From: an uncultured Gemmatimonadales bacterium
GTDB taxonomy: Bacteria; Gemmatimonadota; Gemmatimonadetes; Gemmatimonadales; GWC2-71-9
Direction of reading: 5' to 3'
Assembly: GCA_963844035.1 (NCBI GenBank)
Contig: CAWJMT010000031.1
Location: 19,240-83,239, forward strand
DNA: 64,000 nucleotides
A program made the translations under genes and the position numbers. This document shows positions 8,829 to 58,452 of the stretch, in pieces. Below the pieces are notes generated by a model, which was given only the letters and a program-made list of their open reading frames with translations, made no database searches and was not told the origin of the DNA. Position 1 is the first letter of the stretch; every line of letters begins with the position of its first letter.

Positions 8829-9401
8829 TCAGTCCGGGTACTGGCGGAGCTCGCGGTTCAGCCGCTCGAGCTCTTCGGGAGAGGCGACGACCGGGGGGGC
8901 GCTGATCCCAACGGGCGCCGGCGTGGCGCTGCGCGTCCAGCGCCGCAACACCATGAAGAGCAGCGCCGCCGCCACGAGGATCAGCACCCCGGGCGTGAAA
9001 TAGCCCGCGAGATTGAACCCTTTCTTCGGGGGCGCCATGAGAATGGAAAGCCCGTTTTCACTCACGAACGCGTCGAGGATCTCCTGCGCGCTCTTGCCTT
9101 GATCCTCGAGCGCGAGCACCCGCTGGTGCATCTCGGGGCTGGTCGTGCACGTGAAGTCGGTGGTGCGGCAGGTATACACGTCGAGACTGCACCCGCAGGT
9201 GCAGCGCAGCTTCTTCTCGATCGCCTGCGTCGCCTCGGCGTTGTCCCGCGCGGTGACAGGCGGGAGCGGCCGGCCGGCGCGAGCCGGATCCCAGAGCTTG
9301 CCGGAGTTGTGGAGGGAATCGGGAGTCTGGGCGGGAAGGCGGGAAGCCGGGAGGGCGGGAAGCAAAAGCAGTCCCGCGGCAAGGGTAATGCACCCGCGCA
9401 T
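8829..9401 (-). CDS. ccmH: Cytochrome c-type biogenesis protein CcmH
   Basis: MRGCITLAAGLLLLPALPA signal peptide, LRCTCGCSLDVYTC (LRCxxC thiol motif) and a C-terminal TM. The track ORF 8829..9854 is over-extended into ccmF. Confidence 0.85.
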   Translation of the reverse strand: MRGCITLAAGLLLLPALPASRLPAQTPDSLHNSGKLWDPARAGRPLPPVTARDNAEATQAIEKKLRCTCGCSLDVYTCRTTDFTCTTSPEMHQRVLALEDQGKSAQEILDAFVSENGLSILMAPPKKGFNLAGYFTPGVLILVAAALLFMVLRRWTRSATPAPVGISAPPVVASPEELERLNRELRQYPD

Positions 9402-9445
9402 CAACCTTACCGCCTTCCCGCCCTCCCGCCTTCCCGCTCCCGCCT

Positions 9446-9447
<2 letters not shown>
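9329..9447. repeat. Imperfect palindrome built from GGCGGGAA-type octamer arrays; the arms flank the ccmH start codon
   Basis: Left arm 9329-9363 is gggcgggaaggcgggaagccgggagggcgggaagc. Right arm 9410-9447 is ccgccttcccgccctcccgccttcccgctcccgccttc. The loop contains ATG 9401-9399 of ccmH. Confidence 0.8.
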
Positions 9448-11468
<2,021 letters not shown>

Positions 11469-43451: not shown

Positions 43452-43976
43452 TTAGAAGCCGAACGCCAGGCCGAGCGTGACGGGAAAGAACGTCATGTCG
43501 CTGCCGCCGTCGTTCATCACGCCGATGTAGCGCGCTTCGGCGAACAGATTCATCCCGCCGAGGCCGAAGGTCAAGCCACCGCCGGCGTTATAGCCCATCT
43601 CCGAGCTAGAGCCAGCGCCCACGTCCACGTTGTAGATGCCCACGCCACCGAGCACGTAGAACTTGACCGGCACCGCCGGGGCGCCAATGCGATAGACCAG
43701 GTCGGCGGAGCCACCGCTCAGGGTGGTGCTGCCGCTCAGGATGGTCTCGTCATGCGTGGTCTGGGAATACATGCCGTCCACGCGCACACCGAGACCCGTC
43801 AGGGGGAGGCCGACTTCGACGGCGCCCAGCACGTGCCAGCCCGCGTTGTCCAAGGTGGAGTAGTCACCGGACGGCAGGATGCCGCCCGCACCGACACTGA
43901 CCTTGACATGCTGCGCGCTCGCCGTCGAGGCGACGATAAAGCCAAGGGCCAAAACGCTCAAGAAAACCCGCTTCAT
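43452..43976 (-). CDS. Small outer-membrane beta-barrel protein
   Basis: Signal peptide MKRVFLSVLALGFIVASTASAQ, alternating strands, and a terminal ...LGLAFGF. GGGAGG RBS. Confidence 0.7.
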   Translation of the reverse strand: MKRVFLSVLALGFIVASTASAQHVKVSVGAGGILPSGDYSTLDNAGWHVLGAVEVGLPLTGLGVRVDGMYSQTTHDETILSGSTTLSGGSADLVYRIGAPAVPVKFYVLGGVGIYNVDVGAGSSSEMGYNAGGGLTFGLGGMNLFAEARYIGVMNDGGSDMTFFPVTLGLAFGF

Positions 43977-44324: not shown

Positions 44325-45293
44325 TCATATCTCCCAGTTCGAGAACAACACGCCCCCGGACACCTCCGGCTCCGGGTACCCCTCGTAGGTCATGCGCAGG
44401 TCGGTCCACCGCACCCGGTATCCGCGCTCGACGAGATGCCGAAACGCCTGCGTGTGGCGCGTCTCGCACCGCACCGCGACGCGGCGGATGCCGGCCCGCG
44501 CCGCCGCGGCTTCGGTCGCCGCCATCACGGCACGGAAGGCGCGCTCGTCGCGGGCGGCCAGCTTGAGGATGCGCACCTCTTCCTTGGGCCGGCCCTCGGC
44601 GAGGGGCGCCGCGTGCCACACCACGAGCCCGTCGAGCCCGGTGGAGCCTTCGAGCAGCGTGGTGTCGCCGAGCCCGAGCTGCGCGGTGAGCAGGATCTCC
44701 CGCGTGAAGTCGGGGCCGCGCGCGAGCTGCGCAACGAGGCGGCTCGCCGCCTCCGTGGCCGCTAGCCGGTCGGCAGGCTGGCGCTGCGACATGAGCGCCG
44801 GCGCGGTATGACCCCGCGTCCCGATGTCGAGCGTCATGGTGAGGGTGAGGTGGCCGGGAGTGAACCCCAGACGGGCGTAGAACCCGATGTTCTCGACCGT
44901 GCGCGGCATGGTCTCGAGTCCCAGCGTCGTCACACCTTGATCCATCAGCCAGTCCGCGGCGGCGCGCACGATCCGCTTGCCGATCCCGACGCCCTGCTGG
45001 TCGGGGCGCACCGCGAGCGGGCCCATCCACCCCTCGGCGCCCGAGCGGTGCGCGATGTTGAACGCGGCGATCTGGCCGGCGTCGTCACGCCACACCATGG
45101 CCCCGTCCCCCGCATCCTGCAGCGCATAGCGCCAGATCTGGGGATTGAGGTACGGGACGCGCACGCCGACCAGCCCGTCGCGCCGGTAGCGGTCCGTGAA
45201 CGCGTCCGCGAACACGCGGTTCAGGCCTTCGATATCGCGTTCCTGGGCGCGCTCCGGCCCGGAGACGTGCCGCTCAGGCAGCCACGCCCGCAT
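44325..45293 (-). CDS. GNAT-family N-acetyltransferase (tandem GNAT-like halves)
   Basis: GPLAVRPDQQGVGIGKRIVRAAADWLMDQG acetyl-CoA motif; last gene of the nurA-herA-sbcDC operon. Confidence 0.75.
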   Translation of the reverse strand: MRAWLPERHVSGPERAQERDIEGLNRVFADAFTDRYRRDGLVGVRVPYLNPQIWRYALQDAGDGAMVWRDDAGQIAAFNIAHRSGAEGWMGPLAVRPDQQGVGIGKRIVRAAADWLMDQGVTTLGLETMPRTVENIGFYARLGFTPGHLTLTMTLDIGTRGHTAPALMSQRQPADRLAATEAASRLVAQLARGPDFTREILLTAQLGLGDTTLLEGSTGLDGLVVWHAAPLAEGRPKEEVRILKLAARDERAFRAVMAATEAAAARAGIRRVAVRCETRHTQAFRHLVERGYRVRWTDLRMTYEGYPEPEVSGGVLFSNWEI

Positions 45294-47702
45294 CGGCAGC
45301 CCCCAGGGTAGCGGTATCGTCCCGGACCACGCTCGTGCCTCGGGCGGGGTCGAAGTCCACGCGGATCACGCGATCGAGTCCCTCCCGTACCTGCTCGATG
45401 TGCGTGATGAGAATGACCTGCGGAAAGCGGTCGGCCAGGCGCCGCAGCAGCCGACGACGTGCTGGCGGCGGCTCTCGTCGAGCGAGCCGAAGATCTCGTC
45501 CAGCACCAGCAGCGAGAGCGGCTGGCCGGCCCGCTCGGCGATCATCTGCGAGATCGCCAGGCGCAGCACCAGGCTGGCCAGGTCCTCCTCGCCGCCCGAG
45601 ATCACCGGCTTGGGAACGCCGTCGTCGAGAATGGTGACGTCGTAGTCCTCGTTCAGCTCCAGCTCGTGGTAGCGGTCGTCGGTGAGATCGGCGAGAAAGC
45701 GCGACGCGATCTCGCTGATCTCGGGCCGCATCGCGGCGTTCAGGTCGGCGCGCAGGTCGGAGAGTCCGCGATCGAGCTCGTTGTGCAGCCGCTGCCGGGT
45801 CTTGAGGACGGCGATGTGGCGCTCCTGCGCGGCCCGCTCTTCCTCCCGGCGCCCGGCCTCGCGCACGTCGCTTTCCGCCCGCACCAGCTCGCCCCGCGCC
45901 TCCACCAGCGCCAGATCGGCCTCGCGCAGCGCGCCCAATGCCCGATCGTACGCGTCCTTGGCGAGGCGGTACTCCTTCTCGGAGTATCCCTCGGCCGCGA
46001 GCGCGTCCGCCAGCTGCTTCACGCGTCCCTCCGCCTCGGACAGGTCGCGCTCGGCCGCCTCCGCCTCGCTCACCAGGCTGCTGGCACGCGCCGCCCGCTC
46101 CTCCAACGACGCCGCTTCGAGCGCCACCGGCTCGAGCTTGAGGAGGCTGGCGCGCACCGCGTCGTGGTGGGCGACGTCGTACCCCGTGCGACGCGTCGCC
46201 TGCTGCCGCTCCACGGCGGCGGCGCGCTCGCGCGCCGTTTCCAGCTCGCGCCCGGCCCGCACCCGCTCCTCGGCCCGCGCCCGCAGCTCGCCCGCGCGCT
46301 CACTCGCGCGCCGGCTCTCGTCGCGCAGGGCATCGCGCGCCGCCTCAGCCGCCACCACCGCGGGTGGCGCGCTCGCGAGCTGATCCAGGCGCTGACGGAA
46401 ATACTTCCCGTCTTCCACGATCGCCTGCAGCTGGCGGTCGAGCACGCCGAGCACCGCGGCGTGCTCGTCGCCGAGCGGGCGGCGGCAGGTGGGACACTCA
46501 CCCTGTGACCCGAGCTGTGCGATCTTGTCGCGCTGCTCCTTCACGTCGTCGTATTGCGTGAGCAGCTCGGTCCGCTTGGTCTGGGCGTACTCCTTCTCCC
46601 GAACCCACGCGGCGCGCTGCTCCTCCACGGCCCGCGCGGCGGCCTGCCGGCCCGCTTCCAGCTCGCGCGCCTCCTGCTCCGCCTGTGCCAGCGCCGCCTC
46701 CGCGTCGGCCAGCTCGCCGATGCGCTGTTCCAGGCGCTGCATGGTGCGCGCCAGCTCATCGAGCTGGGCCTGGTCCGCACGCCGCGCGGCATCGGCCTGT
46801 AACAGCAATTCGAGTTCGGCGAGCTCCGCCTTGAGGCGCGCGACGGGAGCCAGCTCCGCCTCGAGCTCTTTCAGCTGGTCGCGGGCGCGCATCGCATCGG
46901 CCATCTCTTTGTCGAGCCGTTGAAATTCGTGGCGGCGGGCCAACACCCCGTGTTCCGCCATGCGGCGCTCGCCGTCCAGGGACAGCGTCCGCTCGCGCCG
47001 CGCCACCCAGGCGTTCCAGAGCGGCTCCTCGCGCGCGCACGATTGCTGGGCGGCGTCCCGGACCGCGCCCGCCTGCTTGGCCGCGCGGCGCGTGGCCGCC
47101 AGGCGTTCTTCCGCGCCGCGGCGCTGCTGGGCGAGCGCCTGCGGGTCGGGCAGCGCGGTCTCGAGCCCCCGCAGCTCGGCGGTGAGCGCGTTGCGTACCT
47201 CGCGCACCCGCTCCTGCGCGATCCGCAGGCGTTCGTACCCGAGCACCTGCGAGAGGAATGCGGCACGCTCGGTCTTGCCGAGCGACGCCATCACCGCCAG
47301 CTCCTTCTGTCCGGTGAAGTACGTGTTGAAGAACTCCGCGTGCGTCATGCCCAGCGTGCGCTCGAGCTTCTCCGTTACCGCCTTGAGCGAGTTCGCGACG
47401 GGCTGGCCGTCCTGGTACAGGACGGCGTTCGAGAGCCCGCGCGTCACGCGGTACTCGTGCGCGCCGAGGCGGAACTCGAGCTCCACCTCCACGCTCGCGC
47501 GGCCTTTCGCTCCGAGCCGGCGCACCGAGTCTTTGTCGCCCCGCACGGCCTGGAGCCCGTAGATGGCCCAGGCGATCGCTTCCAGGATGGTCGTCTTGCC
47601 CGAGCCGTTGGGTCCGAAAATCCCGGTGATCCCCGGCCCGAACTCGATCTCGGTATCGGCGTGCTGCCGGAAGTTGGTCAGATGGAGGCGGCGCAGCTCC
47701 AT
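45274..47702 (-). CDS. sbcC: Rad50/SbcC-like SMC ATPase with zinc hook (frameshift near 45452)
   Basis: MELRRLHLTNFRQH...IFGPNGSGKTTILEAI (Walker A), long coiled coil, CPTCRRP hook, ISGGEEDLASLVLRLA signature and LLVLDE Walker B. H-loop VILITHIEQV and the end ...GAADAGVAA* are recovered only in the alternate frame. Confidence 0.9.
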
Positions 47703-48874
47703 CAGCTCGGCTCCTCCCGCCCCGCCTGCTCTACGTACTCGACCCCCAGCCGCACGAATTCCGCGCGATCGAGATCGGCGTCGAGGGGGCGACGCTCCAG
47801 GAAGTCGTGCACCGTCTCGGGGAGGGTCTGGCGCTGGCCGGAACCGCCCGTGGCCGCGACGCGATGCACCGCAGGGCGGCGGAGATCGAGATGGAAGTGC
47901 AGCGCGCGGGACTTGAACCCGCGGATGGCGGCGTGGTCCAGCTCGCGCGCCGTCGACCGCGAGACGTCGAACACGAGGAGCCGGACAACTTGATCGTCGA
48001 TCGCGGGCTTCGCGGCGGCGACGGCGGCGGCGATGCGCTGGTCCAGCTCCTTGGGAGTGAGTCCCTTCCCCTGGATCGGGGGGAGGTCTACATGACGGCG
48101 CACCGGCGCAATCGGCCGGACGGTCACTCTGGCTCCCGGTAGCTCCACCAGCAGATAGCCTTTGCCGATGCGCCCCTTCTCTTCCTCATCCTGCAGCTGG
48201 CCCCAGGGGTTGGGCGGAAGGTACTCGAGGGTTCCCGAATACCAGGCGTTCGCTGCCACCTGCTGGACCTCGTGGTAATGACCGAGCGCCACATAGTCCC
48301 ACTGCGCCGGAGCGAGATCCTGCAGATCGATCGGTGCGCCCCCGTATTCGGCTGTGCCGCGAGTCTCTCCAACCCCGGGGAGCTGCGCGTGAACGACGAG
48401 GACGTTGCGCGTCGTTCCCCGCTGGGGGCGCAGGGACGGACGCTCCGCCTGCATCAACGCCTGATGCGGCACTGCGAGCACCGCACAATCGAGCTTGGGG
48501 TAGGTCAGCCGTCGCGCCTGGTCCACGACGACTTCCACGCCGAGCGCTTCGTACAAGCGCAGGATCGTGCCTGTCTCGACCGAGCGCGGCGTGTCGTGGT
48601 TGCCCGCGATCATGACGACGGGCGCATCCGGCAAATCCGCGCGCAGGCGCTGCAGCTGTTGAAACAGAAACAGGATCGCGGAATTGGTGGGCCGGACGGA
48701 GTGAAAGATGTCGCCCGCCAGGACGATCAAGTCGGGACGCTGGGCGATGAGGTCGTCCACCGCGCGCCGGAATGCCTCCGCGATGTCGGCCTCGCGCTGG
48801 TTACTCCCCCGTGGCGTCTGCCGCTCGTACTGGCGGAACCCGAGGTGCAGATCGGCGAGGTGGGCGAGCTTCAC
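47702..48874 (-). CDS. sbcD: Mre11/SbcD-like nuclease
   Basis: LADLHLG, AGDIFH, AGNHD and ALGHYH phosphoesterase motifs; the stop overlaps the sbcC ATG (ATGA). Confidence 0.9.
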   Translation of the reverse strand: MKLAHLADLHLGFRQYERQTPRGSNQREADIAEAFRRAVDDLIAQRPDLIVLAGDIFHSVRPTNSAILFLFQQLQRLRADLPDAPVVMIAGNHDTPRSVETGTILRLYEALGVEVVVDQARRLTYPKLDCAVLAVPHQALMQAERPSLRPQRGTTRNVLVVHAQLPGVGETRGTAEYGGAPIDLQDLAPAQWDYVALGHYHEVQQVAANAWYSGTLEYLPPNPWGQLQDEEEKGRIGKGYLLVELPGARVTVRPIAPVRRHVDLPPIQGKGLTPKELDQRIAAAVAAAKPAIDDQVVRLLVFDVSRSTARELDHAAIRGFKSRALHFHLDLRRPAVHRVAATGGSGQRQTLPETVHDFLERRPLDADLDRAEFVRLGVEYVEQAGREEPS

Positions 48875-48878
48875 CCGC

Positions 48879-49770
48879 TCACTTCGCCTCGCGCAGCTCG
48901 AGCGTGGTCGACTGCTTCGCGGTCACGGTCGTTCCGTCCGCCATGCCCCCCCGGATGTGGATGCGCACGGTCCCGCTCCTCGACGAGCGCAGCACGGCAC
49001 CCCGGCGCACGGAGAACCGCTGTTCCCCGGTCAGGCGTCCTGACAACTTGAGGGTGAGGACATGACCCTCCTGCATGACCTTGATCGGGTCGCTGGGGAA
49101 CGTGGTCTCGAGTGCGACCCGCAGCGTGGTGTCGAGCTCGCTGGCTTCGATGTCCTTCACTGTGAGTTTCGTCTTCGCCTTCAAGGGGCTGCCGCCGGTC
49201 ATCTCCCCGAGTGGCGCCTCGACCTCCACGGTCCACGAGTCCCCAACGCCGACGGCTCGGGTGGGCAGGGGGAACGCCGCCTCCTTCAGACTCTTGCCGA
49301 ACTGCTGGGCGAGGGGCGAGGGCTGCGCGCCGGCGTTGAGCAACTCCGCCCGCACGACAGTCATGCTGGAATCGTACACCACGGCGCTCGTGAGCCCCAC
49401 GATGTTGTTGAGGGCTCGCCGAGCCGGATTCGCCGCCATCAGGGGCGAGTCCAGACGGGTGGAATCCACCCTGGCGGTGACTGCGATGCCCCCTGTGGTC
49501 GGGCCATTCACCGTCTGGGTGAATTGCATGTGCATCGCCATCTGCTGCTCGGGTATCTTCGCGGTCGAGTCCCCTTCGAACGTGATGTCGAAATACTGAT
49601 CCAGGTTGTAATGATAGACTGCCCCCGCCGGCGGGTGGTACGTCAGGGTCACCTTGGTCGCGTCGCCGCCGCCGCACCCCACTGGCAGCCGCGAGGGCCG
49701 GAAGGATGGCGGCGAAGAGCAGCCAGCGCGACGCGAGCGTGGAGCGGTCCCTCAGATCAGTACGGGTCAT
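48879..49770 (-). CDS. Hypothetical lipoprotein embedded between herA and sbcD (extra G near 49680)
   Basis: MTRTDLRDRSTLASRWLLFAAILPALAAASG-C lipobox, then a beta-rich body (ORF 48879..49682). ATG 49770 overlaps the herA end by 14 nt. Confidence 0.6.
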
Positions 49771-51718
49771 CGCCGATCGGATTGAGCGGCGGCACGGCCT
49801 CGCGCGGCCGGTCGGGCGCCGCGGCGGCCACCCGCTGTCCCAGGGCGCGCCGGAACACACCGAGCGGATCGTCGGAGCGCGCCCGCCGGGTCGAGGCGAG
49901 CGCGCGGCGGACGTCGTCGGGCGTACGGTCCGCGATCAGGTCCTTGATCTGGTTCGGCCGCGCCCGGGAATCGAGCCGCACGAGCTGGCGCACCACGGCG
50001 TCCTCGAACGGCAGGTCGGTGGCCGGCGGAAACCGCTCCACGCCGTCCCGGCCGCGCAGCACCGCGGGCCGCGGAAACCGCACGAAGATCGGCTGCGTGA
50101 AATGGGGATGGCGCACCATCAGCTCACCCACGGGGAGCGTGGCCAGCTTGATCTTGATCGCGGGTGACAGCACCTGGTATCCCGGCGTGGCCAGCTCGTC
50201 GTAGTCCATCCGGCCGTACACGGTCGTCGCGGCGTTGCCGACCACGCGGCGGTGGATTTGCGAGCGGAATTGCTCGGCGCCGAAGAGCACGAGGCCAAGG
50301 TAACGTCCGCGCTCAGAGATATCGAGCAACATCTTTTTCACGTACGTCTCCGGTCCGTCCGCCGATGCGTACTTGTTGAGCTCGTCCACAAACACCACCA
50401 CCGCATCGACTCCCAGGTCGCGCCGCTCGAGGTGCTCGCGCAGTTTGGAGACGACGCGCGCAAACACGAGGTCCTGGCCGAGCAGATCCACGTTCGCCAC
50501 GTCCACCACGTACACGGTGCGGTCCTCGAGCGAGCCCCAAGGCAGATCGTTCGACGGCCCGTCGTCGGCAACGAGACCCTTGCAACGCGTCGAGATGTTC
50601 GAGAGGCGGTTCCGCACCTTGCGGATCGTCGCGATATGGTGGGTGCGCCACATGTCGCCGCGCCCCGCCGACTCGAGCCCGTCGAAGATGGCGCGAAACA
50701 GCGCGTCGAGATCGGCGAACGTCTGCACCCGGTGGGTGCCGCCGAAGCCGTCGGCGAAGTCCTTGTTGAGCACGCGGTCGGAGAGAAAGTCGATGAACGC
50801 GTCGGCCTTCGCGTCGATGTCGTCTCGATTCAACAGCACTTCGGCAAAATCGAGCACTTCCTGGAGGCCCCACACCAGCGGCTCGACATCACCCACCAGC
50901 TCGGGGTGGGTGCGCAGCGTATTGAGGTTCACGCCGTCGGCCTTGAAGGGCGCGTAGTAGCGCACGCCGGCAAACGGCTGTGGCGCGATGCCGAGCCGTT
51001 CGTAGCGGCGCCGATCGGCATCGTCGAGGCTGCCCGGCTGGTCGAGAAAACAGAGGTCGGGCCCTTTGACGTTGAAACAGACCGCGGCGACCTTGCCCTT
51101 GTGCGCCGGGAAGTGCTGAAAGATGGAAGAGAGCAGGAACTCGACCGCACTCGTCTTGGTCGCGAGCCCCGACACACCGGAGATGTTCAGGTGCGCCGCT
51201 TCGGGACCGAGCAGGAAGTCCGCATCGAGATAAACGGGAGCCTCGAGCCCCCCGGATGTGTAGAGGCCGAGCGGAATCCCGGTGGGCGTGGCGGAGGTGA
51301 GATACGCGTCCATGCGGAGCGCTTGCGCGACGTCTGCGTCCGTCGCCACGAACACCTGCCCCAGCGGCACGGGTTGCAGCGGCTCTTCCGGCTGCTGGCG
51401 CAGCACCGCGGCGGTCCACAGGCGGATTTCCTGGCGCATCGTGGGATTCTCGGCAGCGCGGGCGGGGTCCCCCTCCGCGCCGATCACGTCGTGCAGCGGG
51501 GTCGCCAGATCCGAATACGCGAACCCGTCAGTCACCACACCGTGCACCACACGTTCCCCGTTGCCCGTTCCCCGTTCCCCGTCTTCGACGCGGACGATGG
51601 CCCCGATGCCGATCGTGGTCTCGGTCGCGGTCCAGAAATGGAATTGATGCGGCGTGGCGGGCTTGAGCTCGGTTGCCACGACGCGGCCGATCGGGACGGC
51701 ACTGCTGCGCTGGATCAC
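49757..51718 (-). CDS. herA: HerA-like (DUF87/FtsK-HerA superfamily) ATPase
   Basis: N-terminal barrel-like domain, P-loop-like NISGVSGLATKTSAVEFLL, Walker B VVVFVDELNKYA, and partnership with NurA upstream. Confidence 0.75.
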   Translation of the reverse strand: MIQRSSAVPIGRVVATELKPATPHQFHFWTATETTIGIGAIVRVEDGERGTGNGERVVHGVVTDGFAYSDLATPLHDVIGAEGDPARAAENPTMRQEIRLWTAAVLRQQPEEPLQPVPLGQVFVATDADVAQALRMDAYLTSATPTGIPLGLYTSGGLEAPVYLDADFLLGPEAAHLNISGVSGLATKTSAVEFLLSSIFQHFPAHKGKVAAVCFNVKGPDLCFLDQPGSLDDADRRRYERLGIAPQPFAGVRYYAPFKADGVNLNTLRTHPELVGDVEPLVWGLQEVLDFAEVLLNRDDIDAKADAFIDFLSDRVLNKDFADGFGGTHRVQTFADLDALFRAIFDGLESAGRGDMWRTHHIATIRKVRNRLSNISTRCKGLVADDGPSNDLPWGSLEDRTVYVVDVANVDLLGQDLVFARVVSKLREHLERRDLGVDAVVVFVDELNKYASADGPETYVKKMLLDISERGRYLGLVLFGAEQFRSQIHRRVVGNAATTVYGRMDYDELATPGYQVLSPAIKIKLATLPVGELMVRHPHFTQPIFVRFPRPAVLRGRDGVERFPPATDLPFEDAVVRQLVRLDSRARPNQIKDLIADRTPDDVRRALASTRRARSDDPLGVFRRALGQRVAAAAPDRPREAVPPLNPIGDDPY

Positions 51719-52719
51719 GTGCCCGTCTTCGGAAGGCGGGAGGTGGACCGCGGGAGCAGATCCCGGGGGGCGCGGGTCTTCAGATACGTCTCCACATCAT
51801 GAATGGGGTAAAGTAGCCGGTCCCAGCGCGGGTCGGGGGTGGAGATCGGCGCGCGCTCGCGCACCAGCCAGCCGCTCGCCCGGGACGCGGCGGCCACGCC
51901 CTCGTCGCGCGCGCACGCTTCGATCCGCAGCAGGCCGAAGAGCAGGTCATTCCCTTCCCACGGCCACAGCCGCAGGTACCAGGAGAAGACCTGGTGCCGC
52001 GCCCGGCCGCGCGGCCGAAACACGCTCGTGCGGTGCAGCGCCGGAAGGGTGAGCGCGCGGGTCAGATCGTCGCCCTCGAAGTACTGCGCTCCGTGGCTCT
52101 TGATCACACCGAGCGCGCGGGGGTGATCGGCCAGGACGGCGGACTCGGAGAGCACGCCATCCACCACCAGCCACTCTTCCGGCGCGAGCGAGCGCACGTG
52201 CCGCTCGCCCACGCTCTTCTCGACGGCGACGCGGATGTTCTCGACCGCGCGCCGCGCCGCTTCGAGGGCGCGTCCCGGTTGCGCCGCCTCCTCCGCAACA
52301 TCCACCAGCTCGATCCCGCTGGCGTCGAGCGCGGCCCGCACGCCGGGGCGCAGCGCCTGGAGTGAGGCGACGTGGAATTCGCGCGTCGCTTCCACCACGG
52401 TGCGGAGCCGCCGTCCGGCGGCGCGGCGCCGCACCGCTGCGGCCACGTGGGCCCGCACGATCGGCACGACGCCGTCGTAGTAGGTCACCTTCCAGCGCTG
52501 GATACCGTCGAGGAACGACACGACCGGAGGAGGCGATGCCGCCGTGTCGACGGCGTGCACCCGGAGCTCGGCGTCCTCCACCAGCTCGGCCCCCGCGACC
52601 TCTGTCAGATCGGTCCGCCCCAGGCTCTCGTCCGGGACGTGCGACGCCGGCACCGCACCCGCCGCCACTAACGCGTCGGTCCAGCGCGCGGCCAGGGTCA
52701 GCGGGTCCTCAGGGCCCAA
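51715..52719 (-). CDS. nurA: NurA-like nuclease
   Basis: VSFLDGIQR (catalytic Asp region), WLVVDGVL, IKSHGAQYF and WYLRLWP pattern. 4-nt overlap with herA. The start (TTG 52719 or downstream) is uncertain. Confidence 0.65.
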   Translation of the reverse strand: MGPEDPLTLAARWTDALVAAGAVPASHVPDESLGRTDLTEVAGAELVEDAELRVHAVDTAASPPPVVSFLDGIQRWKVTYYDGVVPIVRAHVAAAVRRRAAGRRLRTVVEATREFHVASLQALRPGVRAALDASGIELVDVAEEAAQPGRALEAARRAVENIRVAVEKSVGERHVRSLAPEEWLVVDGVLSESAVLADHPRALGVIKSHGAQYFEGDDLTRALTLPALHRTSVFRPRGRARHQVFSWYLRLWPWEGNDLLFGLLRIEACARDEGVAAASRASGWLVRERAPISTPDPRWDRLLYPIHDVETYLKTRAPRDLLPRSTSRLPKTGT

Positions 52720-53426
52720 CCGATGTAGGTGACCGTCGTGTCGTCGATGAGGGATCGACTGCCGTCGCCCGCGCGCCCCACCCCGCTCATCTCCTGCACC
52801 ACCATGCCGTGACGCGCGAGCTGTTCGGTCAGATCGGCGGGCGGGATGAAGCGGGCGAAATCATGGAAACCCTCGGGCATGGTGTGCTCCACGTATTCCT
52901 CTTCCCAGATCAGCCGCAGGAACGCGGCGATCGTGCGGTTGTGCGTCAGGAAGCCGAGTCCGCCCCCGGGGGCCAGCACCGTGGCGATGGCGGCCAGGGT
53001 GCGGTCCAGGTTGTCCACGTGCTCCAGCACGTCCACGGCGAAGACGAGGTCGAAGGTGCCTTCGATCCCCGTGCCCGTCAGGTCCTCGCCGGTACCCCGG
53101 TAGTATTCGATCGACAGTCCGGTCTGTGCGGCGTGGTCCCGCGCGGCCGCCAGCGATTTCTCCGACGGGTCGACCCCGGTCACCACCGCGCCTTCGCGGG
53201 CGAGGGCCTCCGACAAGATCCCGCCGCCGCAGCCGACATCCAAGACCCGTTTACCGCCGAACCCGCCGAAGGCGTGGCGAAAGTACTCCACGCGGATGGC
53301 ATTGAGCTGATGCAGTCCCGCGAACGGGCCCTCGCTGCTCCACCATACGCCGGGCGTGCGCTCCACCAGCCGCTCGTACTTGGCCGCCTCCGGGAGCCCG
53401 CCCAACCGCGGTAGGGGATCGCTCAT
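52698..53426 (-). CDS. Class I SAM-dependent methyltransferase (UbiG-like)
   Basis: RVLDVGCGGGILSEALAREGAVVTGVDPS...FDLVFAVDVLEHV. Confidence 0.75.
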   Translation of the reverse strand: MSDPLPRLGGLPEAAKYERLVERTPGVWWSSEGPFAGLHQLNAIRVEYFRHAFGGFGGKRVLDVGCGGGILSEALAREGAVVTGVDPSEKSLAAARDHAAQTGLSIEYYRGTGEDLTGTGIEGTFDLVFAVDVLEHVDNLDRTLAAIATVLAPGGGLGFLTHNRTIAAFLRLIWEEEYVEHTMPEGFHDFARFIPPADLTEQLARHGMVVQEMSGVGRAGDGSRSLIDDTTVTYIGWALRTR

Positions 53427-54055
53427 GAGCCCACCTTCACCGCGACCACCACGCCGTCACGGATCGGCACGACGGACGAAACGAGCCGCGGGTCGGAGGC
53501 GGCGAGCAGGTTGAACGCGCGGACACCCGCCGTGTCGGGAGACTGGTCCGCGGGATCCACCACGGCGCCGTGGAAAAACGCGTTGTCGCACAACAGCAGT
53601 CCGCCGGCGCGCAGCAGCTTGAGGCTCCACTCGAAATACTGAGGAAGGTTCGCCTTGTCGGCATCCAGGAAAATGGCGTCGAATCCGGGCTTTAGCGTGG
53701 GCAGCACGTCGAGCGCCGCCCCTTCGAGCACCTGGACCTGCGCGCTCAACCCGGCCTCAGCGAACGCCTGGCGGGCGAGCGATGCGTGGCGCGGGTCTTT
53801 CTCGATGGTGGTCAGGCGGCCGCCCGCCGGTAGCGCGCGTGCCAGCCAGACGCCGCTGTACCCGGCAAGCGATCCGACTTCGAGCACCGTGGTCGCCCGC
53901 ACGGCGCGCAGCAGCACGTGCAGCAGTTTGCCTTCGTCCGCGGAGATGTGAATCGGGGGGAGCTTGAGCCCGGCCTGGCGCGCGCGGATGGTGGTGAGAA
54001 TCGCGTCTTCGACGGCAAACAGCTCGGTGGCGTAGCGCTCGAGCCGTTCGTCCAC
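53423..54055 (-). CDS. O-methyltransferase (caffeoyl-CoA OMT-like family)
   Basis: VLEVGSLAGYSGVWLARAL...LTTIEKDP...FDAIFLDADKANLPQYFE. Confidence 0.8.
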   Translation of the reverse strand: MDERLERYATELFAVEDAILTTIRARQAGLKLPPIHISADEGKLLHVLLRAVRATTVLEVGSLAGYSGVWLARALPAGGRLTTIEKDPRHASLARQAFAEAGLSAQVQVLEGAALDVLPTLKPGFDAIFLDADKANLPQYFEWSLKLLRAGGLLLCDNAFFHGAVVDPADQSPDTAGVRAFNLLAASDPRLVSSVVPIRDGVVVAVKVGS

Positions 54056-54057
54056 GT

Positions 54058-54573
54058 TCAGGCGGTGGCCTCAAGGTTGGGGAATGGCGGCACCTCCGCG
54101 AGCCACAGCCCGGCGATGCGGGCCTGTTTGTCGACTTCGACCAGGAGGTGGTCGGCCACCCGTACGACGCTGACCGGACGCGGGCGCCCGAACCGCAGGT
54201 GGAAGACGGTTTCGCCGGCGTTCTTCTCGACCGTGAGCGCCGTGTCCACCTCGACGGCCGCCACGCCGGGCTGCGATTTGCGGCTGGGGAACACCACGCG
54301 GCCGTCCTTCGCGGCGGCGGGCGTCGCCAGGTCGGGCATGGTCCGCACCTCGTCGGGCCAGGCCACCACATCCACGCCGCGCAAGCTGCCGCCCGCGACG
54401 TCGATGACCACGAACGAGCCGTCGGCGCCCGACAGGTCCACGGTGCCGTTGAGCCCCTTGGTGGTCGCGCCACCCTTGCAGGCGACCGAGAGGATGTCGG
54501 TTTCCGGGTCCCAGCGGTAGGTCACCTTGGGAAGGGCTCCGGACAGTGGCTCAATGCGCGCTTCGAGGTTCAT
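54058..54573 (-). CDS. Hypothetical protein, two DUF2283-like halves
   Basis: MNLEARIEPLSGALPKVTYRWDPETDILSV...; only the last 171 codons of track ORF 54058..55680 look coding, the rest being antisense of the M24 gene. Confidence 0.45.
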   Translation of the reverse strand: MNLEARIEPLSGALPKVTYRWDPETDILSVACKGGATTKGLNGTVDLSGADGSFVVIDVAGGSLRGVDVVAWPDEVRTMPDLATPAAAKDGRVVFPSRKSQPGVAAVEVDTALTVEKNAGETVFHLRFGRPRPVSVVRVADHLLVEVDKQARIAGLWLAEVPPFPNLEATA

Positions 54574-57097: not shown

Positions 57098-57161
57098 CTA
57101 CCCCGCCCGGACGCTAGCATCCCGCCAGCACAAGAACCGCCCTTTGACAATCGAGGATCGT

Positions 57162-58452
57162 GTGACGACGGTAGATGAGGCCCGGGCCGCGCTCGAGCGC
57201 GGCCGCCCGGTGGTATTGGTGACGCCCCCCGCGCCGGATCAGGCGGGAGCACTCTGGGACCTGGTGGGCGCGCCGGGGGAAACCCCCAAGGGAAGTCCCG
57301 CGCTGGTCATCGTGTGCGCTGGCGAGGGTTTGCCCGCCGAGTGGGCCGCCGCGGCACCCAGCGACCGTCGGCTCCACGCCGTCACCGGCCTGCGCCGCAG
57401 TGAGCGCTGTCTCCGCGACCTCCCCATCGGCGCGCTCGCCGGCACCGTCGCCGATCTCTCGGCGCTGCTCTCCCGTTCCGCGCTCAAACTCGACACCGTT
57501 TCGACCATCGTGGTCGCCTGGCCCGAGCTGCTCATCACCACCGAGCAGGCGGGCGCGCTCGACACGCTCCTGAGCGCCGCCACGAACGCCCGGCGTGTGG
57601 TGCTGAGCTGGAATCCCGGCATGCTCAGCGACTTCCTGGAGCGGCACGCCCGCCGCGCCGAGGTGGTGGGAGGGGCGCCGACGTACGACGGCGCGCCCCT
57701 GTCGCCCATCGGACCGGCGCGCTACGTGGTCGCGTCCCGTTCCCGCCACGCCGCGTTGCTCCAGGACGCACTCGATCTGCTCGATCCGAAGCACCCCTTT
57801 CGTCTGGGACGGAGGTCCCTGCGATGCGGGCGATGCTCCCGACGCCGTGTTCTGCCTCCGGCTGCCCACCCGCGAGCAATTCGCGCTCTTGTCGCAGCGG
57901 GGCGAGCCGATCGTGTTCCTGGACGCCTCCCAGCTCCCATACCTCCGTTCGATTGCGGCGCCGCTCACGCCGGCGCGGCTGCCGTCCGCGGCCGATCGGG
58001 CCCAGGACCGCGCGCAGGCTATGCGCACGCGGATCGCACAGCTGCTCGAGACGCGGCAGCCCGACGGCGAGCTCGCGGTGCTGGCGCCGCTGTTCGAGCG
58101 TTTCGATCCCGCCGAGGTCGCGGCGGCTCTCCTCGCGATACTGGGGGACGAGGGACGGGGGAAGGGGGAAGAGGGCGTTCCCGCCGCCGCACCAGCCACC
58201 GGTGGCTCAGTGCGGGTGTTCGTCAACGTCGGCACGAAGGACCGCGCCAGCGCCAAGGACCTGGTCGGCGCGCTCATCAAGGAAGTAAAGATCGGCAAAG
58301 GAGAGATCGGCCACATCGACGTGCGGGAGACGTTCAGCGTCGTCGAGGTCGCCGCGGGGGTGGCGGAGCGCGTGGTGCGGGACCTGTCGGGCGTGACCAT
58401 CCGCGGGCGCCGCGCGATGGCGCGTCTGGATCGCTACAACTCGCCCGCGTGA
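57162..58452 (+). CDS. Degenerate DEAD-box-helicase-like protein with C-terminal DbpA-type RNA-binding domain (frameshift near 57800)
   Basis: C-terminus VRVFVNVGTKDRASAKDLVGALIKEVKIGKGEIGHIDVRETFSVVEVAAGVAERVV matches the DbpA RBD. The N-terminal region has helicase-like spacing but no GKT P-loop and AWPE in place of DEAD. The start is uncertain. Confidence 0.55.

Follow-up and report, generated by a model that had tools for sequence, protein, structure and literature searches.

Introduction

Constantinesco et al. are said to have described in 2004 an archaeal operon of the order herA-mre11-rad50-nurA in Sulfolobus and Pyrococcus. Such archaeal four-gene operons and the mechanism by which NurA and HerA of Deinococcus radiodurans (DrNurA and DrHerA) resect DNA ends are the closest described systems (PMC3326311; PMC9960219), together with a cluster of Oceanithermus profundus in which sbcD and sbcC lie downstream of nurA-hepA and which its authors likened, in architecture and function, to the system for double-strand-break repair in archaea (Blesa et al. 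2017, PMC5448004). In the literature, we found no paper on a NurA-HerA-SbcCD cluster in Gemmatimonadota, nor one in which NurA-HerA-SbcCD is taken for a defence system. Here we describe such a cluster in a stretch of 64,000 nucleotides (nt) of contig CAWJMT010000031.1 from an uncultured Gemmatimonadales bacterium (hereafter the window, to which all coordinates refer), where nurA, herA, sbcD and sbcC follow one another within an array of genes that all lie on the minus strand. An earlier note, made from the letters of the window, had called 44325-52719 an archaeal-style module and left its function between repair and defence. We consider it likely that the locus is a chromosomal housekeeping operon for end resection at double-strand breaks, which combines a bacterial-type NurA-HerA pair with a Mre11/Rad50-type SbcD and SbcC.

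The four core genes encode a bacterial-type NurA-HerA pair and Mre11/Rad50-type partners

The four genes are the following (aa, amino acids):
51715-52719, minus strand: nurA, bacterial-type NurA nuclease, 334 aa from a TTG start (assigned by fold, family profile and transitive Pfam matches)
49757-51718, minus strand: herA, bacterial-type HerA, a predicted hexameric translocase/ATPase, 653 aa, GTG start (assigned by phmmer against PDB 7f6d_B)
47702-48874, minus strand: sbcD/mre11, Mre11-type phosphoesterase nuclease, 390 aa, GTG start (Pfam Metallophos and motifs)
45274-47702, minus strand: sbcC/rad50, Rad50-type SMC-like ATPase, 809 aa once one C is restored (Pfam, NCBIfam, PDB and motifs)

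The earlier note had let its NurA and HerA names stand or fall with profile hidden Markov model searches of 51715-52719 and 49757-51718 against the NurA and HerA/DUF87 families and, taken literally, these searches came out against it, with no match for either. The NurA-like protein gave no NurA match in Pfam (including PF09376 NurA), NCBIfam or PADLOC, even at an expect value (E) of 10, and neither phmmer with the protein nor a following hmmsearch with a profile of close relatives (profile A1) returned a match in the PDB. The HerA-like protein matched neither Pfam (DUF87, HerA_C, HAS-barrel) at E<=10 nor NCBIfam, and in PADLOC only mad8, weakly (3e-5). Both genes thus go unnoticed because the current Pfam and NCBIfam models miss them.

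For NurA, the identification came through the fold and through the wider family. The AlphaFold2 (AF2) model, built on 39 sequences with a predicted local distance difference test score (pLDDT) of 84, had DrNurA as its top Foldseek match (7f6d_G, E=3.5e-12, 328 aligned columns, template modelling (TM) score 0.55), followed by TM1739 of Thermotoga, the second bacterial NurA with a solved structure (1zup, E=4.8e-11, TM score 0.55), and the significant fold matches were three in all, 7f6d_G and two 1ZUP chains. When cluster representatives at 50% identity were searched exhaustively, 829 clusters related to the window's NurA came up, and a second profile (A2), made from 97 full-length representatives of the NurA family that are 26-62% identical to the window protein, matched by sequence both TM1739 (1zup, 2.9e-9) and DrNurA (3.6e-9) in the PDB. 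Moreover, 13 of these 97 representatives, each matching the family profile of the window's NurA at E<=6e-36, match PF09376 directly (best 4.8e-7). The earlier note had seen Asp-containing motifs in this protein; FLDG (residues 69-72), VVDG (185-188) and IKSH (206-209) are at the expected places, and D71 of FLDG, E167, D187 of VVDG and K207 of IKSH are invariant across the 97 sequences or conserved in at least 90% of them. FLDG aligns with FVDG of TM1739, and K207 with a lysine of DrNurA (chain index 221) that would be K201 if a presumed 20-residue tag is subtracted. In DrNurA, K201 is needed for nuclease activity and D53 (D53A) is the site of a catalytic mutant (PMC9960219). Most relatives start nurA about 8 codons after the TTG start of the window. 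By fold, family profile and transitive Pfam matches, we assign 51715-52719 to the bacterial-type NurA proteins; a Mn2+-dependent 5'-3' nuclease activity, a dimeric state and the binding of HerA are predicted for it by analogy.

HerA could be identified by sequence, as phmmer against the PDB aligned its residues 10-561 with D. radiodurans HerA (7f6d_B, E=4.6e-42) in two stretches, residues 10-288 and 318-561. The P-loop GLATKTS (184-190), of an unusual, bacterial form, and the Walker B motif VDELNKY (444-450), the latter already noticed earlier, both align with the DrHerA motifs, and D445-E446 of Walker B falls on DrHerA positions 487-488, the site of an ATPase-dead mutant (PMC9960219). None of the archaeal HerA and defence-type HerA chains among solved structures was matched by the window HerA. 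From this alignment 49757-51718 is assigned to the bacterial-type HerA proteins, for which a hexameric ring and ATP-driven translocation of double-stranded DNA are predicted by analogy. A C-terminal tail of about 90 aa (residues ~562-653; window 49757-50030) extends past the region aligned with DrHerA.

SbcD matched Pfam Metallophos (PF00149, E=2.2e-13) and, in NCBIfam, Mre11_Sulfo (1.5e-23) and sbcd TIGR00619 (3.8e-20), both under the curated cut-offs: the TIGR00619 score was 72.8 bits with a cut-off of 77.65, and the archaeal Mre11 equivalogs were far under theirs. Its nearest PDB chains were Mre11 of Pyrococcus furiosus and Methanocaldococcus jannaschii, then Thermotoga maritima (best E 2.9e-18). 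SbcC matched AAA_23, SMC_N, SbcC_Walker_B and Rad50_zn_hook in Pfam, the last with 22.5 bits, under its 24.3 cut-off; its best NCBIfam model was the archaeal Rad50 PRK03918 (E=1.8e-48) and its best PDB match M. jannaschii Rad50 (E=2.6e-27), with Thermotoga next after the archaeal proteins. The E. coli-type SbcCD chains in the PDB were matched by neither protein. Since the scores fall under the curated equivalog cut-offs, SbcD and SbcC are placed within the superfamily and in no named curated subfamily. The Mre11 motifs listed in the earlier note are all at the expected places (DLHLG 8-12, GDIFH 54-58, GNHD 91-94 and GHYH 198-201), with VVHAQ at 160-164, and so are the Rad50 Walker A (GPNGSGKT 30-37), CPTC hook (403-406), signature (SGGE 702-705) and Walker B (LLVLDE 731-736), with the Q-loop at 132; the H-loop ITHIE (766-770) can be read solely after a 1-nt repair.

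The order of the core genes is conserved in Gemmatimonadales

A genome contig scan provided a sample of 80 Gemmatimonadales species genomes, all with a HerA at least 78% identical to that of the window, and counts are given over the loci that reach far enough on the given side. The nurA gene is directly upstream of herA in 66 of 69 loci, and downstream of herA come sbcD (61/61), sbcC (51/51) and the gene of a GNAT acetyltransferase (46/46). The comparison of neighbourhoods that the earlier note had proposed finds the four genes syntenic in Gemmatimonadales species genomes, and because the arrangement is conserved across 80 species-level relatives it is not due to chance. The same note had thought the locus unusual, which does not hold: the arrangement is the rule in Gemmatimonadales and recurs elsewhere, both on contigs of Armatimonadota-like type and on plasmids from Chloroflexota, Cyanobacteria and Streptomyces. 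Taken together, the comparisons point to a core of nurA-herA-sbcD-sbcC, with the GNAT gene added in Gemmatimonadota.

The array is flanked by an aspartate aminotransferase gene and, in 46/56 loci, by an M24 peptidase gene, and no integrase, transposase or variable island was found at the locus across the 80 species. The spacer between herA and sbcD is variable: it is shorter than 60 nt in 19/61 loci, where the two genes abut and the insert is absent, and at least 600 nt long in 38/61, in 34 of which a homologue of the lipoprotein gene was found. In two relatives a C-terminal remnant of nurA is seen (our loci L002, 9816-9974, and L024, 6893-6958) and in a third the gene is absent (L079, 9951-10001), with herA, sbcD and sbcC in place.

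The core genes are embedded in an array of nine overlapping or adjoining genes

Besides the core, the array contains five other genes (ORF, open reading frame; SAM, S-adenosylmethionine):
54058-54573, minus strand: gene X, a conserved 171-aa ORF, first gene of the array (weak DUF2283-like Pfam match, E=0.032)
53423-54055, minus strand: O-methyltransferase, class I SAM-dependent, Methyltransf_3 (Pfam PF01596, E=3.4e-44)
52698-53426, minus strand: SAM methyltransferase, Methyltransf_11/25, UbiG/UbiE-like (Pfam E=2.4e-22)
48879-49770, minus strand: lipoprotein gene (DUF6263), 296 aa once one G is removed (Pfam DUF6263, E=1.5e-6)
44325-45293, minus strand: tandem-GNAT acetyltransferase, 322 aa (Pfam Acetyltransf_1, E=1e-13, in the N-terminal half; fold)

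On the minus strand, an uninterrupted run of nine co-directional genes goes from 54058 down to 44325. All junctions were read individually and are either overlaps (4, 22, 4, 14, 1 and 20 nt) or gaps of 2-4 nt. The claim that six minus-strand genes form one overlapping array at 44325-52719 was borne out when the ORFs and junctions were re-read, all being at most 4 nt apart or overlapping, and the two co-directional SAM methyltransferases that had been placed upstream, up to 54055, are both there, with a 4-nt overlap between them and one of 22 nt between the second and nurA. The array extends one gene further upstream than previously described, to gene X, whose end is 2 nt from the start of the O-methyltransferase gene. 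Within the core, nurA and herA overlap by 4 nt at 51715-51718 (a shared GTGA), and the herA stop (49757-49759) lies beyond the lipoprotein ATG (49770), which gives a 14-nt overlap; both are as claimed. Between the lipoprotein stop (48879-48881) and the sbcD GTG (48874) there are 4 nt. The sbcD/sbcC junction had been placed correctly at 47700-47704, with its sequence misread: instead of ATGA it is TGATG, with a 1-nt overlap. The repaired sbcC stop (45274-45276) overlaps the GNAT ATG (45293) by 20 nt, in agreement with the approximate value given before. As neighbouring genes overlap or stand no more than 4 nt apart, in a conserved order, we infer that they would be co-transcribed as a single operon.

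The G+C content of the window is about 68%, level across the region with no compositional break around the locus. With 60-90% identity to their counterparts in metagenome-assembled genomes of Gemmatimonadales, the proteins mark the window as a chromosome segment of this order (phylum Gemmatimonadota). Neither tRNA genes nor Rfam families at the gathering threshold were found in the whole 64 kb. Downstream of the GNAT gene, a 174-aa ORF (window 43452-43976, minus strand) with a signal peptide, Gly-rich beta-strand-like sequence and no Pfam matches has the look of a small beta-barrel protein of the outer membrane; homologues were present in the retrieved flanks of 8 relatives only, at variable distance downstream of the GNAT gene.

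Most accessory genes appear to be passengers

Gene X was found in all 56 relatives whose loci reach far enough upstream, with an identity of about 73%, and among the same loci the O-methyltransferase is kept in 45/56 and the second methyltransferase in 23/56. Because they are variably present in relatives, the lipoprotein and the methyltransferases are read as passengers, and so is gene X, which is absent from more distant clusters (L085, L088) and is thus not a core part. We considered the lipoprotein as a part of the machine and rejected this, since about a third of relatives lack it and have herA and sbcD abutting; a role of the methyltransferases as restriction-like DNA methyltransferases was likewise rejected, as they are of the Methyltransf_3 and Methyltransf_11, small-molecule/RNA type and variably present. 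In two relatives (L014 and L016) gene X stands directly upstream of nurA, with no methyltransferase genes between, and in the window a TATATT box precedes the gene X ATG by about 14 nt.

The GNAT gene, which comes after sbcC in all Gemmatimonadota clusters inspected and for which nothing points to a chemical link with DNA repair, is the one conserved feature left without an explanation. Its AF2 model (pLDDT 85) shows two GNAT domains, and its top Foldseek matches (3tt2, 3ddd, 7q3a) are tandem GNATs whose substrates vary or are unknown. It is also present in the distant clusters L084 and L088 and absent from the Armatimonadota-like and plasmid clusters, being a partner specific to Gemmatimonadota. 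It is quite unlikely that GNAT would be a dedicated fifth component that regulates the resection machine by acetylating a subunit or a DNA-end-binding protein and, at the same time, that nurA-herA-sbcD-sbcC(-GNAT) would be the principal double-strand-break resection system of the phylum, replacing RecBCD/AddAB.

The sbcC and lipoprotein genes carry single-nucleotide frameshifts

The C-terminal frameshift of sbcC pointed out in the earlier note is indeed present, as the given sequence lacks one C near 45450. As sequenced, the ORF stops at 45366, 43 codons early and without the H-loop, and restoring the C gives the 809-aa protein, which aligns in a single frame with relatives, where sbcC is intact. 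Past the shift the frame is open, with 90-100% identity to relatives over the tail, and the indel resembles a CC run collapsed to one C. A second shift had not been flagged: an extra G in the GGGG run 49677-49680 of the lipoprotein gene puts the signal peptide and lipobox (LAAASG|C) in another frame than the mature part, and the repaired 296-aa protein aligns in one frame in relatives, with the lipobox ASG|C restored.

Elsewhere in the window, the alignment of a gene with a DbpA RNA-binding domain (57138-58434, plus strand) to its relatives switches frame near 57798 (57796-57800), and around 40636 and 60516 there are weaker frameshift candidates. Taken with the shifts in sbcC and the lipoprotein gene, the DbpA case points to roughly one 1-nt indel every several kb of the assembly. 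The sbcC and lipoprotein frameshifts are, judging from these alignments, probably sequencing errors.

Related clusters occur beyond the order, on distant contigs and on plasmids

As the genome contig scan yielded Gemmatimonadales only, wider synteny was followed through the 50%-cluster NurA representatives, by cluster and contig look-ups. The order nurA-herA-sbcD-sbcC was found in 6/8 sampled distant NurA contigs (L083, L084, L085, L086, L088 and L089), the other two being an Armatimonadota lineage with the nurA-herA pair alone and a contig with a solitary nurA; the nearest named relatives of L086 are Armatimonadota. The distant contigs have G+C fractions of 0.36-0.76 and different flanks, and their four genes are collinear, full-length homologues of those in the window, with identities of 49-69% for HerA, 30-52% for SbcD, 32-49% for SbcC and 32-44% for NurA. 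In L084, the cluster with a G+C fraction of 0.76, a small gene of the bAvd/23S-rRNA-IVP family (9145-9525) lies on the opposite strand between nurA and herA.

HerA homologues are scarce on plasmids (6 of 72,556 records) and in phage records (2 of 50,697). The two phage records are MT836743.1 (5641-7299), an unannotated 8.9-kb 'Bacteriophage sp.' from human faeces with a HerA of 31% identity at 85% coverage, and KP836355.1 (38516-39721), the annotated HerA of Marinitoga camini virus 1. Four annotated plasmid matches were inspected, from Ca. Chlorohelix (Chloroflexota), Sphaerospermopsis and Aulosira (Cyanobacteria) and Streptomyces sp. BB1-1-1, and all adjoin sbcD and sbcC; a 'hypothetical protein' in each of these clusters belongs to the NurA family (hhalign against the family profile, 97-99.4% probability). 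The plasmid clusters thus have the same four families adjacent as the window, annotated as hypothetical or ATP-binding proteins. They differ from it in their plasmid location, partly beside defence-type genes, and their proteins are distant, with HerA 24-31% identical and a long (1006-1117 aa), weakly similar SbcC. The Streptomyces plasmid has the order herA-sbcD-sbcC-nurA, which is that of the archaeal operon.

On this plasmid (L092, NZ_CP134205.1 415105-428355) the cluster adjoins an ImmA/IrrE peptidase gene and a TIGR02678/TIGR02680/DUF2397 set, which we tentatively take to be Wadjet-like. On the Ca. Chlorohelix allophototropha plasmid (L090, NZ_CP128402.1 18092-33750), nurA-herA-sbcD-sbcC are annotated as hypothetical, ATP-binding, SbcD and SMC, and they are preceded by ImmA/IrrE, sigma factor, Ser/Thr kinase and TIR-domain genes and followed by IS200/IS605 transposases, possibly a defence-island context.

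A resection operon is likely, and other readings of the locus are less so

With its identified genes, catalytic and ATPase motifs that are intact (in sbcC after the 1-nt repair), tight packing and conserved order, the locus probably serves end resection. We propose a mechanism modelled on the complexes that have been characterised in archaea and Deinococcus, in which Rad50-Mre11 would recognise, tether and trim a DNA end, a HerA hexamer capped by a NurA dimer would load on that end and, using ATP, drive duplex DNA into NurA, where the 5' strand would be degraded, and a 3' tail would be left for RecA. The overlapping start and stop codons would provide for a co-ordinated synthesis of the four proteins. 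Co-transcription, the coupling of the two sub-complexes and a role in resection in vivo are inferred.

Several observations weigh against a resection operon. In Deinococcus and Thermus, deletion of nurA/herA leaves resistance to ultraviolet light and mitomycin C unchanged or increases it (PMC9960219), so that in vivo the bacterial NurA-HerA pair may hold repair back instead of promoting it. Among 69 relatives, 3 keep herA with nurA absent or a mere remnant, an unexpected pattern if the two were an obligate pair. In the given sequence, the frame of sbcC is broken ahead of the H-loop and, if this is genuine, Rad50 would be inactive in this strain. Finally, scans for consensus promoters and terminators did no better on the locus than on shuffled sequence.

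The last but one of these points could mean that the operon is decaying in this strain, the sbcC and lipoprotein shifts being genuine inactivating mutations; two 1-nt indels inside 4.3 kb of one operon and the decay of nurA in three relatives fit such a reading. We find it distinctly unlikely, as the frames after both shifts are open and well conserved, the indels sit in a GGGG run or resemble a collapsed CC run, and a third similar shift lies in the unrelated DbpA-domain gene, with possibly two more (~40636, ~60516): frameshifts in unrelated genes argue for a general indel error rate rather than for operon decay. That the four genes are co-transcribed and serve separate pathways with no joint machine, with SbcCD acting on hairpins and protein-blocked ends and NurA-HerA, for example, competing with RecJ-type resection or acting in DNA transfer, we regard as unlikely. 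Such a division would agree with the work done by nurA-herA of Deinococcus and Thermus without a linked sbcCD (PMC5448004), with the pair alone in one Armatimonadota lineage and the solitary nurA on one contig, with the variable lipoprotein gene that can separate herA from sbcD and with the loss of nurA while herA-sbcD-sbcC stays. Against it, the genes are found linked in five phyla or more and in two different orders, a recurrence that suggests selection for co-expression, the four proteins of the short-Rad50 group diverge together along the same contigs and Mre11 of Sulfolobus is reported to interact physically with HerA (PMC2288612).

A module devoted mainly to defence, as a nuclease/ATPase that degrades foreign linear or hairpin-containing DNA of phages and plasmids, appears very unlikely. 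HerA ATPases do belong to known defence systems, such as Sir2-HerA and DUF4297-HerA, a role in genome protection was speculated on by the authors of PMC3326311, SbcC has generic matches to SMC-like models of PADLOC, and the distant plasmid clusters adjoin defence-type genes (ImmA/IrrE and the putatively Wadjet-like set in Streptomyces; ImmA/IrrE, TIR and kinase in Chlorohelix). The window locus, however, has a fixed core-genome context across the 80 species, a level G+C content and no integrase, transposase or variable island, and plasmid and phage homologues are rare. In PADLOC there is no NurA match, the mad8 match of HerA is weak (3e-5) and the SbcC matches reflect a generic similarity of the ATPase head, as for any Rad50, and among solved structures HerA matches only the repair-type HerA of Deinococcus. 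The case for defence thus looks weak for the window locus and would be more plausible for its plasmid-borne relatives. For the window locus, end resection at double-strand breaks remains the reading that we prefer.

Comparison with known systems

The four-gene arrangement is no oddity, as it belongs to a known type of system that is common and has been obscured by poor annotation. The published statement that NurA-HerA occurs in only a few bacteria (PMC9960219) is contradicted by the 829 NurA clusters at 50% identity; the family is a fixed core-genome feature of Gemmatimonadales and is also found in Armatimonadota, Chloroflexota, Cyanobacteria and Actinomycetota. In these phyla, a 'hypothetical protein' and an 'ATP-binding protein' upstream of sbcD should be re-annotated as nurA and herA. 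The repeated linkage with sbcCD offers bacterial systems in which the hand-over of a DNA end from Mre11-Rad50 to HerA-NurA, a question also in archaea, could be studied.

The NurA and HerA of the window are of the same bacterial type as the NurA-HerA of D. radiodurans (PDB 7F6D, 7WRW/7WRX; PMC9960219) and as TM1739 (1ZUP). The two HerA proteins have in common the P-loop GxATKTS and the Walker B DELNKYA, the window nurA is immediately upstream of herA and overlaps it as in Deinococcus, and the conserved W13 near the N-terminus of NurA recalls W8 and the pin motif of DrNurA. The differences are a NurA whose identity to DrNurA, as aligned by fold, is no more than about 20%, the extra tail of about 90 aa on HerA and the linkage to sbcCD, which the Deinococcus and Thermus pair does not have. 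The statement in the earlier note that bacterial NurA-HerA pairs are described mostly apart from sbcCD agrees with Deinococcus and Thermus (PMC5448004); in Oceanithermus, Gemmatimonadales and the other phyla named above, linked genes are found. The Oceanithermus cluster belongs to Deinococcota and was reported as a single case, whereas the window arrangement is order-wide; the two are likened here by gene content.

With the archaeal operon, the locus shares the same four functions in one co-directional cluster, in the window with a variable lipoprotein gene interposed. Its Mre11 and Rad50 score better against archaeal models and structures than against those of E. coli-type SbcCD, and Rad50 is archaeal-like in being short (809 aa) with a CxxC hook. 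HerA and NurA, on the other hand, are not of the archaeal type, as they have no sequence or fold match to the Sulfolobus and Pyrococcus HerA and NurA structures, the gene order is nurA-herA-sbcD-sbcC and not herA-mre11-rad50-nurA, and the host belongs to a mesophilic-type soil bacterial lineage, with extra GNAT, lipoprotein and methyltransferase genes in the array. The description of the module as archaeal-style is thus apt for its gene content and for the similarity of Mre11 and Rad50, and not for its gene order or for HerA and NurA, which are of the Deinococcus/Thermotoga type.

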